Assembly: GCA_041666445.1 (NCBI GenBank)
Contig: JBAYGV010000001.1
Location: forward strand, 1 to 31,228
Reading direction: 5' to 3'
DNA: 31,228 nt
Source of the DNA: Candidatus Micrarchaeia archaeon
GTDB taxonomy: Archaea > Micrarchaeota > Micrarchaeia > Anstonellales > Bilamarchaeaceae
Of the stretch, positions 2,876 through 5,260 are shown piece after piece. Both the position numbers and the translations under genes were made by a program. Within the stretch, counting starts at the first letter, position 1; every line of letters begins with the position of its first letter. The notes under the pieces are model-generated. The model searched no databases. It was not told the origin of the DNA and was given only the letters and a program-made list of their open reading frames with translations.

Positions 2876-2899
2876 ATTACCATCTCTTTGGAATCCCGA

Positions 2900-3024
2900 T
2901 GAAAAAATTTCATAAATTTTTTCAGAATCCGATTGTCCGAAGCATCGGACAATGGACATCTTGTTGCTCTAAGCAACAAGCTTGTTGGAATTTTAGAAAT
3001 TCCAATACGATGAAAATTTATGAA
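2900..3024. repeat. Tandem array of four perfect inverted repeats with an additional long-range inverted repeat
   Basis: TGAAAAAATTT-cat-AAATTTTTTCA (2900-2924); ATTGTCCGA-agca-TCGGACAAT (2932-2953); CTTGTTGCT-cta-AGCAACAAG (2960-2980); TTGGAATTT-tag-AAATTCCAA (2985-3005). Positions 2909-2920 are complementary to 3013-3024. Confidence 0.9.
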
Positions 3025-3062
3025 TAAAAATATAAATAAACGGCGCTTTGCTCGCGCCGTTT
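3025..3062 (-). terminator. Hairpin plus U-rich tract after the DUF883-like gene
   Basis: Minus strand reads AAACGGCGC-gagcaaa-GCGCCGTTT followed by ATTTATATTTTT, about 20 nt after the stop at 3084. Confidence 0.55.
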
Positions 3063-3083
3063 TCAAATTATATTAACCTTTAA

Positions 3084-3287
3084 TTACTCTTTTTTCCTGT
3101 GAGTAATTGCAAGCGTTGCAATAGCGCCAATGGCGGCACCAACCGCAGCGGCAACTAGAACTGCTTTTTCAGGCTCTTCCTTGATGTGAGCATCCATAGA
3201 TTTCTTGACATGAGCGAATTTCTTTTCCGCTTCTGCAATTGCCTTTCTTGCCTTTACTTCTGCTTCTTTCTTTAAGTTTTTTGCCAT
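3084..3287 (-). CDS. DUF883 / ElaB-YqjD-like tail-anchored membrane protein
   Basis: K/E/A-rich helical N-terminus, then IKEEPEKAVLVAAAVGAAIGAI (the 'P..avliAagvG' tail-anchor signature of DUF883) and a basic C-terminus. Confidence 0.7.
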   Translation of the reverse strand: MAKNLKKEAEVKARKAIAEAEKKFAHVKKSMDAHIKEEPEKAVLVAAAVGAAIGAIATLAITHRKKE

Positions 3288-3355: not shown

Positions 3356-5260
3356 CTAAGCTATTGCCTCCTCAATCTTTTTCTCAAGAATCTTAAGGAA
3401 GCCCTGCCATAGTGACCCGTAATTCTGGAAATTTGAAATGAACGGGTTCAGCATGCATACCCTAAGGACGCGAACTTTGCCAACCCGGTTCCATTCCTTT
3501 TCCGGAATTCCAAGCCTTTTTACGAATTCTTTTGGCGCGTCACCGTAATCTTCCTTGCTCAGCTCGGTATTTGAAGTAATCCAGTCGTTTTTGTAAACCG
3601 GGCCTTCCACGTATGAGGATTCGGAATAAATTTTTGAGTTAAGCTCGTTCATATTCTCCAAATTAGCATTGCCTTTCTCATTGAACGCCATGCAAATTAT
3701 GTTGAAGTCGGGAGTCCAGACTAACGGCTGCACTAAGAATTCCTTGCCCTTGACCTTCAGGCTTTTTATTGATTCGAGCGAGCGGGTAAACATCTGCGCC
3801 CCCTCTATGCTTCTTCCGATTATTTCGCCATAGCCAGTTATGTTCAACGGAACCAGCCTGTGGCTTGCCCAAACTGCTGCTGCAGTTGCACCAGCTTTTG
3901 AGCCTTCCATTATGTATGAGCCAAGAAGAACCGGGGTGTTCTTTCCTGATTCGAAAACATAGGCTGCAAAATAGGATATCAGATCCAGTATCCTGCGGTC
4001 CTTGATTGCAATTCCCCCCGCAGCATAGGGAATGTATCCCATCTTGTGTGGGTCAATGGTAATGGAATCTGCTGCCGGGATTGCCCTATAGGATTCGTAG
4101 ATTTCCTTTGCCGGATAGGAATGGTTCCCTACGAAAACCTTGTCCGAAAACAGGCGTTTTTTCAAAGTGCCGTATTCCATGAAACGGCTTTTTTCGTCGA
4201 GGAATAACGCCCTTGAATAGCCCCCATAGGCAGCATCAATGTGGAAATAGAATGAAACTCCTTTTTTCTGATAAGCGTCGCGCAGCTTTGCGATTTCGGC
4301 AATCCGGTCAATCGCTCCTTCTTCCGTAGTGCCCACCACCCCAACTACTGCAATTATTGGGATTTTCTTTGCTACGTGCCCGTCAATGATTTTTTTCAGG
4401 ACTCCGATGTCCATGCGAAAATGCTCATCTACCTGCACTTCTATAAAATTCTTGTTTCCTATGCCCAGGACATCGGCGGCCTTAACCCACGAATAATGCT
4501 TGGATTGCGGGACAATGACAACACCAAGTTTTCCTTCCCCGACTCCGGTTCCACGCACAGTTTCTTTCCTAACTGCATCAAAGCAGCCCGCCTTCTTGAC
4601 TTTCTCAATCAGGTCAAGCGCTTTCTGCGTTGGCATATTCATGAGCTGCCAATCGCTCATTCCTTTTACCAAAGACGGCTTGACTTTTTTTACTGCGGGC
4701 GGGAAAGATTTGAGATTCCTGGCCATCCAAAGCCCTTCGTAGTTGGCAATCGTCCCGTCGGTAGTGATGTGCCCCCAGGAATTTTTTGGGTCAAAACCGA
4801 GCATGGCTGAAAGGTCTTTCCCAACTTCAATTTCCATGGGCGCGGTTGCAGTTGACGCTTCATAGGCCACGTTGTTCGGATTGTAAAGAAGCGCTGCCAT
4901 GTAGGCCAGGTTTGCAACCATGAGCGTATCTGAATTCATATGGCCAAGATAGCGTGCTGAAAACCATGGCATGGAAGTTGCCTTGAGCTTTGATGAAAGT
5001 TCAGAAAGGACTTCAGATGTCCTGTCCAGGGTTTCCTGATATTTCTCGCTGCGCATTTCATGCATAGAGGATATTTCAGCATCTTCAGGATGAAAATCCC
5101 TGCGCCAGTGCATATGCTCTTCCATCAGGAAATTGAGCATGTTCTTGAAATATTCGCGGTTTTCCGATTTCGGACCTAAGAAAAGCGCCTTGACTTCAAC
5201 ATCTTTTGGATTAGCTTTTGCAACGCTAGGTTTTGCATTTTTCTTTTTTTCTCCGGCCAT
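3356..5260 (-). CDS. tdcA: Group II PLP-dependent decarboxylase, Enterococcus/Lactobacillus-type L-tyrosine decarboxylase
   Basis: 634 aa with ALFLGPKSEN, RYLGHMNSDTL, NNVAYEAS, WGHITTDGTIANYEGLWMARN, VPQSKHYSWVKAADVLGIG, HIDAAYGGY, SITIDPHKMGYIPY (PLP lysine) and YIMEGSKAGATAA. These motifs closely match the lactic-acid-bacterial TyrDC family. Confidence 0.85.
   Translation of the reverse strand: MAGEKKKNAKPSVAKANPKDVEVKALFLGPKSENREYFKNMLNFLMEEHMHWRRDFHPEDAEISSMHEMRSEKYQETLDRTSEVLSELSSKLKATSMPWFSARYLGHMNSDTLMVANLAYMAALLYNPNNVAYEASTATAPMEIEVGKDLSAMLGFDPKNSWGHITTDGTIANYEGLWMARNLKSFPPAVKKVKPSLVKGMSDWQLMNMPTQKALDLIEKVKKAGCFDAVRKETVRGTGVGEGKLGVVIVPQSKHYSWVKAADVLGIGNKNFIEVQVDEHFRMDIGVLKKIIDGHVAKKIPIIAVVGVVGTTEEGAIDRIAEIAKLRDAYQKKGVSFYFHIDAAYGGYSRALFLDEKSRFMEYGTLKKRLFSDKVFVGNHSYPAKEIYESYRAIPAADSITIDPHKMGYIPYAAGGIAIKDRRILDLISYFAAYVFESGKNTPVLLGSYIMEGSKAGATAAAVWASHRLVPLNITGYGEIIGRSIEGAQMFTRSLESIKSLKVKGKEFLVQPLVWTPDFNIICMAFNEKGNANLENMNELNSKIYSESSYVEGPVYKNDWITSNTELSKEDYGDAPKEFVKRLGIPEKEWNRVGKVRVLRVCMLNPFISNFQNYGSLWQGFLKILEKKIEEAIA

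Follow-up and report, generated by a model that had tools for sequence, protein, structure and literature searches.

The hairpins H1 to H4, which lie at approximately positions 2897-3030 between two small membrane-protein genes, are probably one copy of a lineage-specific modular palindromic repeat family of the Micrarchaeota. The window analysed here is a stretch of 31,228 nt from a genome, designated G000, of 1.02 Mb in 174 contigs that is 71% complete and has a G+C content of 43%; its EF-1alpha is nearest to that of a Bilamarchaeaceae MAG of the Micrarchaeota, with 79% identity, and the labels G004, G047, G001, G011, G035, and G043 denote related genomes. We propose that the family consists of mosaic non-coding arrays in which a small set of perfect hairpin "words" is combined with conserved linkers, and that the copy in the window would have been inserted and reshuffled between two genes that appear to be coupled in a relative. 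The family has the behaviour of dispersed or mobile DNA, with many copies in both orientations, a variable number of units, and presence/absence polymorphism at homologous sites. The perfect stems would most likely be kept by DNA-level processes acting on hairpin or cruciform DNA, i.e., template switching, conversion between arms, or copying of master words, and selection on RNA would be a less likely cause of their pure Watson-Crick pairing.

The underlying observation is real and highly non-random. A repeat search, which gave H1 to H4, and a scan for perfect hairpins with a stem of at least 9 bp and a loop of 3-7 nt, which added hairpin 5, confirmed the five hairpins described in the earlier note (Table 1), and the 14-nt palindrome that bridges H3 and H4 reads as it had been described. 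By the same scan the whole genome G000 contains 82 perfect hairpins compared with 11-19 (about 16) in shuffled sequences, and five hairpins per 165 nt have a Poisson probability of ~3e-12 even at the genome's own hairpin density, which bears out the claim that the array is far from random. The region folds with z-scores of -7.7 on the minus strand and -8.4 on the plus strand. The array does not have a CRISPR layout, as each hairpin has a different sequence and the units are 2-7 nt apart. The array is bracketed by the partial H1 copy and by a 9-nt direct repeat, CGATGAAAA, which stands at 2897-2905 and again at 3008-3016; neither of the two is present in the closest homologue, which lies on contig C62 of G004.

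Table 1. Positions of the features discussed in the text; coordinates refer to the window, and the L numbers in the last two rows denote loci in genome G011
Feature	Position	Strand	Remarks
Downstream gene, 102-aa membrane protein	2567-2875	minus	ORF list; protein starts MGIMEQ
Non-coding spacer, 208 nt	2876-3083		between two co-directional minus-strand genes; ORF list and sequence
SD-like motif GAGATGG	2880-2886	minus	starts at -11 of the ATG at 2875
Hairpin 1 (H1), AT-rich, 11-bp stem, 3-nt loop	2900-2924		terminal word of the repeat family
TATA-like box TTTATGAAA inside H1	2908-2916	minus	begins at -41 relative to the ATG at 2875
Hairpin 2 (H2), ATTGT...ACAAT-type unit, 9-bp arms, 4-nt loop	2932-2953		
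Linker GGACAT between H2 and H3 (ATGTCC on the other strand)	2954-2959		near-invariant in the alignment of 24 copies from 9 genomes
Hairpin 3 (H3), core word CTTGTYGC-loop-GCRACAAG, 9-bp arms, 3-nt loop	2960-2980		
14-nt palindrome spanning the H3/H4 junction	2974-2987		ACAAG/CTTGT junction is a family-wide feature
Hairpin 4 (H4), AT-rich terminal word, 9-bp arms, 3-nt loop	2985-3005		
Degenerate partial second copy of H1	3008-3030		repeat search
Hairpin 5, GC-rich, 9-bp stem, 7-nt loop	3038-3062	minus	scan for perfect hairpins
Upstream gene, 67-aa protein with C-terminal membrane anchor	3084-3287	minus	ORF list
G011 MITE, short form without module	L162, L163, L165, L167, L168		
G011 MITE, long form with H3+H2 module	L170, L164, L169, L166		several at contig ends

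Palindromes are prone to chimeric assembly, and the earlier note had named a fold-back artefact among the outcomes that would refute it. The array is nevertheless spanned by contigs of two independent sequencing runs from different studies (2018 and 2022) with 0-1 differences and no joints, thus a fold-back assembly artefact can be set aside, and homologous arrays occur in other genomes; we give this explanation next to no credence. The public runs that contain the window sequence are groundwater metagenome DNA runs only.

The hairpins are not a peculiarity of one spacer. Arrays of at least two perfect hairpins within 20 nt occur 15 times in G000 and 0 times in three shuffled genomes, and a BLAST search of the region against its own genome, a check for further copies that the earlier note had suggested, recovered H1 and H4 on four other contigs. 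The H1 word is present on contigs C148, C35, C115, and C70, the H4 word on C91, C115, C131, and C70 as well as in G004, and these stems recur in G000 with differing loops. Contigs C53 and C91 have two further hairpin words in common, and AT-rich hairpins of the H1/H4 type stand alone on C70, C115, and C131 as a two-hairpin minimal element. The H3 word is found in G000 in a single copy. The arrays of this genome occupy co-directional, divergent, and convergent spacers.

The same vocabulary is used by the relatives. In G004, which belongs to another genus, 15 BLAST matches were obtained and all of them are confined to the hairpin part of the region. The copy on its contig C62 keeps the order H1-H2-H3-H4 and is 77% identical to the window along 113 nt (E=1.5e-17); its linkers are those of the window (GGACAT, CTTG, and TACAAT) and its stem changes are compensated, such as the C-G to T-A change in the H2 word, a word that is present in G004, G047, and G035. 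The H3 word was detected in 15 of the 61 family genomes and in 18 of the 151 order genomes, with 0-1 hits for a reversed-pattern control, and its core amounts to at least 22 copies in G004 and 7 in G047. A related strain represented by run X3, which has ~97% identity to the window in the 67-aa gene, departs from it left of 3029 and has a different hairpin word beside the AT-rich stretch, as judged from one short 188-nt contig only; therefore, array composition varies between close strains.

The anatomy of the family was derived from approximately 40 collected and oriented copies. Their core order is ACAAG, H3, ATG(C/T)CC, between one and five ATTGT...ACAAT-type units, and then (T/C)GGGA. Each unit has the form ATTGT, variable stem, loop, variable stem, ACAAT, the linkers are short (e.g., GCGC or ATGCA), and AT-rich hairpins of the H1/H4 type form the ends of the arrays. 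The dyads overlap, so that adjacent arms together with the linker between them are palindromic as well. About ten to twenty hairpin words are common to several genera, with no constraint seen on the loops.

When 24 cores from 9 genomes were aligned, 96.8% of the cells proved to be paired and G-U pairs account for 4 of 497 cells, in agreement with the earlier description of the stems as purely Watson-Crick. Double-sided changes were found at 10 of the 21 pairs, in 52 cells; none of 500 shuffles reached the observed value and slid controls collapsed. The covariation sought in related genomes is thus present, and it includes the Y/R positions of the H3 word and a closing helix of 3 bp in which a 1-nt bulge is conserved. 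Within G000, hairpins with one mismatch, a class dominated by background, show no excess of G.T. We infer from the near absence of G-U pairs and of single-sided changes that the stems fit DNA-level upkeep of the palindromes or the copying of master words. Conservation of the stem words across genera and the covarying bulged helix leave some room for a host function, which could be RNA or protein binding.

Protein binding was part of the earlier proposal, in which the hairpins were regarded as a possible array of operators for dimeric proteins; these would be tandem sites in duplex DNA for regulators or nucleoid proteins. The dyads are indeed perfect, their outer half-sites ATTGT/ACAAT are conserved, the linkers and neighbouring arms make further dyads, and the stem sequence itself is conserved between genera beyond the pairing. 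The half-sites, however, are 8 to 12 nt apart, with a spacing that differs among units. Within one genome, inner positions of the stem change together on the two arms, which a single protein would not need, and copies occur inside ORFs and a tRNA intron. An operator array is therefore quite improbable.

The places where the modules are found show a dispersed family that is probably mobile or recombining and that does not fit a conserved operon regulator. Presence and absence at homologous sites is seen in three cases, i.e., an ORF of G047 and G001, a gene pair of G004, and strain X3. The 358-aa ORF of G047 reads through the element and gains ~48 extra residues, and its G001 homologue is contiguous at the insertion site and has the element, in the same frame, as its C-terminus instead. 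G011 has an IS200/IS605-type MITE of 105 nt with ATCAA-type ends, which exists in forms with and without an H3+H2 module (Table 1); where present, the module occupies the loop of the MITE's end hairpin. This end hairpin (CGCTGC-AA-GCAGCG, then GGGTAT) corresponds to the end of an IS with a Y1 transposase on contig C6 of the same genome (L161). On contig C54 of G004 (L014:1458-1669), ARAGORN with introns allowed reports a tRNA with a 116-nt intron that holds an H2+H3 module; with default settings it reports no tRNA beside this copy. By hand, the gene reads better as a putative tRNA-Leu(GAG) with the anticodon arm CTAGC-TTGAGGG-GCTAG and a non-canonical intron in the D-loop. Transposed tRNA introns were reportedly described in Thermoproteales by Fujishima et al. 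in 2010; they resemble our case in that one copy lies in a non-canonical tRNA intron, and differ in that most copies of the Micrarchaeota family are outside tRNA genes. A further tRNA gene with an intron was observed in G000 (C110:995-1125), where a tRNA-Asn(GTT) call includes a 58-nt intron; the perfect 9-bp hairpin in this intron (1037-1058) has a different type of sequence.

We consider it possible, though unlikely, that these modules represent a new type of structure-specific mobile element in DPANN archaea, one that would spread by insertion into single-stranded hairpin loops or other exposed DNA. Insertion into loops would explain the nesting in the MITE hairpin, in the D-loop intron of the tRNA, in ORFs, and between H1 and H4. 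The enzyme would have to be other than the known RAYT/IS200 transposases, the insertions would be tolerated by in-frame read-through or by intron-like removal from RNA, and the perfect stems would be made by the chemistry of transposition or replication itself.

A comparably small chance is given to an element domesticated by the host at the RNA level, such as a stabiliser in 3'-UTRs or between cistrons, a processing site, or a terminator, all of them roles that REP, ERIC, and Correia elements have in bacteria, or else a segment removed like archaeal bulge-helix-bulge introns. Its folds would be very stable, the bulged closing helix covaries, one copy is located within the tRNA intron, and orientation in G004, although mixed, shows a modest excess of sense copies: 8-9 copies are sense to the neighbouring genes, 4 are antisense, 1 is convergent, and 1 is divergent, i.e., 8-9 of 13 co-directional copies have one orientation (binomial p=0.27), and five sense copies start 17-28 nt after the upstream stop codon, which could reflect a 3'-UTR role. 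This account is at odds with the scarcity of G-U pairs and with the lack of a G.T excess in imperfect hairpins. Both orientations would be transcribed, with the copies in the Top6B leader and the tRNA intron being "antisense", copies are also present in divergent and convergent spacers, and the ORFs stay open across the copies inside genes, which would be needless if these were spliced out. The double-sided covariation, the missing G.T excess, and the occurrence in both orientations thus fit better with a DNA-level explanation, as the earlier note had suggested. Roles of the arrays as terminators only or as promoters only were rejected because of the copies in divergent and convergent spacers.

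The genes on either side of the array give little to identify them by. Their earlier labels, ElaB-like and YqjE-like, hold at a sub-threshold level only, since neither protein has a Pfam match at E<=0.01 and the match of the 102-aa protein to PF07332 (YqjE/holin-X) is weak (E=0.04, sub-threshold). The 67-aa protein shows weak similarity to one of 78 aa in G004 (pairwise E=1e-4), and orthologues of the flanking genes are rare, being present in 3 of the 76 genomes in the family. On contig C44 of G004 (L172:1477-2021, minus strand), the homologous pair of membrane-protein genes, encoding 78 aa and 103 aa, overlaps in an ATGA stop/start, with zero spacer and no hairpins, and is on this ground predicted to be translationally coupled. 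This suggests that the 208-nt spacer of the window may be derived; at 22% identity the G004 pair is a remote homologue, so that its "empty site" compares either paralogues or distant orthologues.

These genes also bear on the proposal of a single local switch or ncRNA, i.e., a leader, riboswitch, or four-way-junction switch that regulates the downstream gene. It draws on the position of the array directly upstream of a gene, on its good folding, and on the mutually exclusive pairings that are possible within it. The 12-nt complement between 2909-2920 and 3013-3024 on which the junction was built is 100% in the repeat search, because the degenerate second H1 copy sits at 3008-3030; the four-way junction itself finds no support from comparison, as the copy on C62 of G004, the closest homologue, has no complement of at least 6 nt at that place and thus lacks the closing helix. 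The search of Rfam, even at permissive E-values, yielded no family at gathering score, with best scores of 15-26 bits against thresholds of 40-369. The same modules adjoin unrelated genes, including the one for Top6B, where the C62 copy lies upstream in the opposite orientation, and many others, and the homologous gene pair of G004 has neither spacer nor palindromes, an outcome that the earlier note had itself named as refuting. A gene-specific cis-regulatory RNA or a conserved regulatory element is therefore very improbable, and the array is better regarded as one copy of the dispersed repeat family.

The insertion of a family copy could still have affected its surroundings. The element would separate the two genes, the TATA-like box in H1 together with the SD-like motif may drive the downstream gene, and read-through RNA would contain four very stable hairpins. 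The geometry of these two motifs (Table 1) is identical to that of the 67-aa gene upstream, which has TTTATAAA at -41 and GAGGTGG at -11. A survey of the regions upstream of 618-1028 long ORFs in the whole genome G000 revealed two classes of promoter: leaderless genes have a TATA-like hexamer beginning at -32 to -27 relative to the ATG, whereas in SD genes the SD peaks at -12 to -9 and the TATA starts at about -41 to -36. By this geometry, H1 may act as promoter of the downstream gene. The role is claimed for the copy in the window only, because few H1-type hairpins elsewhere are at such distances: about 4-5 of roughly 20 AT-centred hairpins in G000 are located 26-41 nt from a start codon. A general promoter function of H1-type hairpins was rejected on the same count.

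Hairpin 5 has to be viewed apart from the others. It follows 22 nt after the stop codon of the 67-aa gene, continues into a T-rich run on the minus strand (3062-3025), and has no second copy in a BLAST search against the own genome. The earlier view of a single array of five is upheld for H1 to H4, which belong together, and fails for this hairpin, which is GC-rich, ends in a T-rich tail, and occurs just once in the genome. From its sequence and position it is a separate terminator-like hairpin, presumably of the upstream gene, outside the repeat family.

The family could not be linked to a transposase, to clear terminal inverted repeats, or to a target-site duplication. The Y1 domain PF01797 of IS200 and RAYT-type enzymes was not found in G000, G047, and G001, all incomplete MAGs. 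In G004 and G011, the Y1 transposases have different, GC-rich hairpins of their own on either side, and in 61 genomes the co-occurrence of Y1 transposase and module was not significant (5 of 12 vs 13 of 49, p=0.31); a link to RAYT/IS200 enzymes was rejected on these two grounds. A degraded fragment of a Y1 transposase was noticed in G043 (C97:3843-4055), ~750 nt from an H3+H2 module (4800-4820).

Small palindromic repeats are well known in bacteria, with REP/BIME, RPE, Correia, and BOX as examples, and our literature search found no description of this repeat family or of small palindromic repeats in DPANN archaea. The reviewed archaeal MITEs are from Sulfolobus, haloarchaea, and a few others (PMC10969869). 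A close parallel is offered by the REP/BIME elements of Proteobacteria (REPINs), which are mobilised by RAYT Y1 transposases (PMC2817692, PMC3333891, PMC3116915) and have a conserved GTAG or CGTC tag at the foot of the hairpin (PMC3733652). Both groups are composed of short intergenic hairpin-forming palindromic units in mosaic arrays with short conserved linkers, and both have variable unit numbers, genome-wide dispersal, and lineage specificity. The Micrarchaeota family differs in lacking the GTAG/CGTC tag, its feet being ATTGT/ACAAT and CTTGT/ACAAG, and in having no flanking or co-occurring RAYT that we could find. Its copies are in the tens, not hundreds, its host is a DPANN archaeon, and its arrays mix many words instead of repeating one REP in alternating orientation.

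Other systems share single traits with the family. Rickettsia palindromic elements are ~150-bp single elements in a reduced genome without a known transposase (PMC10969869); they are likewise palindromic and have in-frame gene insertions, seen here in the relatives only, in addition to intergenic copies, but they do not form arrays of short perfect hairpins, a relation at the sequence level is not to be expected, and the window copy is intergenic. Correia elements of Neisseria, in which terminal inverted repeats are clear and a TA duplication is present, contain promoter boxes and alter downstream expression, and pneumococcal BOX elements are assembled from end modules and middle modules, the latter in variable number (PMC10969869). 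The promoter-like box that the geometry of H1 suggests and the modular build recall these two, although the arrays of Micrarchaeota have no clear terminal inverted repeats or TA duplication. With MITEs derived from IS200/IS605 the family is connected by the H3+H2 module inside the G011 MITE, and hairpins with conserved feet would fit single-strand transposition; most copies, however, are outside such a MITE, and the copy-rich G047, G001, and G000 show no Y1 transposase in their incomplete MAGs.

A family that has entered spacers and ORFs as well as a tRNA intron and a MITE would mean that even symbiont genomes of 1 Mb have active repeat dynamics, and such repeats could split operons and donate promoter-like boxes. 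The arrays also break MAG assemblies, with copies at contig ends in G000 (C28) and G011. Because they resemble riboswitch-like leaders, they are best masked in annotation ahead of any search for regulatory RNAs. The longest arrays were observed in G004, where at least 8 different hairpins extend over 250-300 nt in non-coding regions of 700-800 nt (L158:3100-3450, L159:3420-3710, and L160:2780-3530), and the conserved word CCGAATGGGCAAATCAT follows the array in L158 and L159. Other G004 copies (L030, L033, L043, L044, L046, and L048), and likewise L041 and L062, have GGTAGA/GCTAGA direct repeats on both sides, and words similar to AGACTGGAAAC recur in their flanks.
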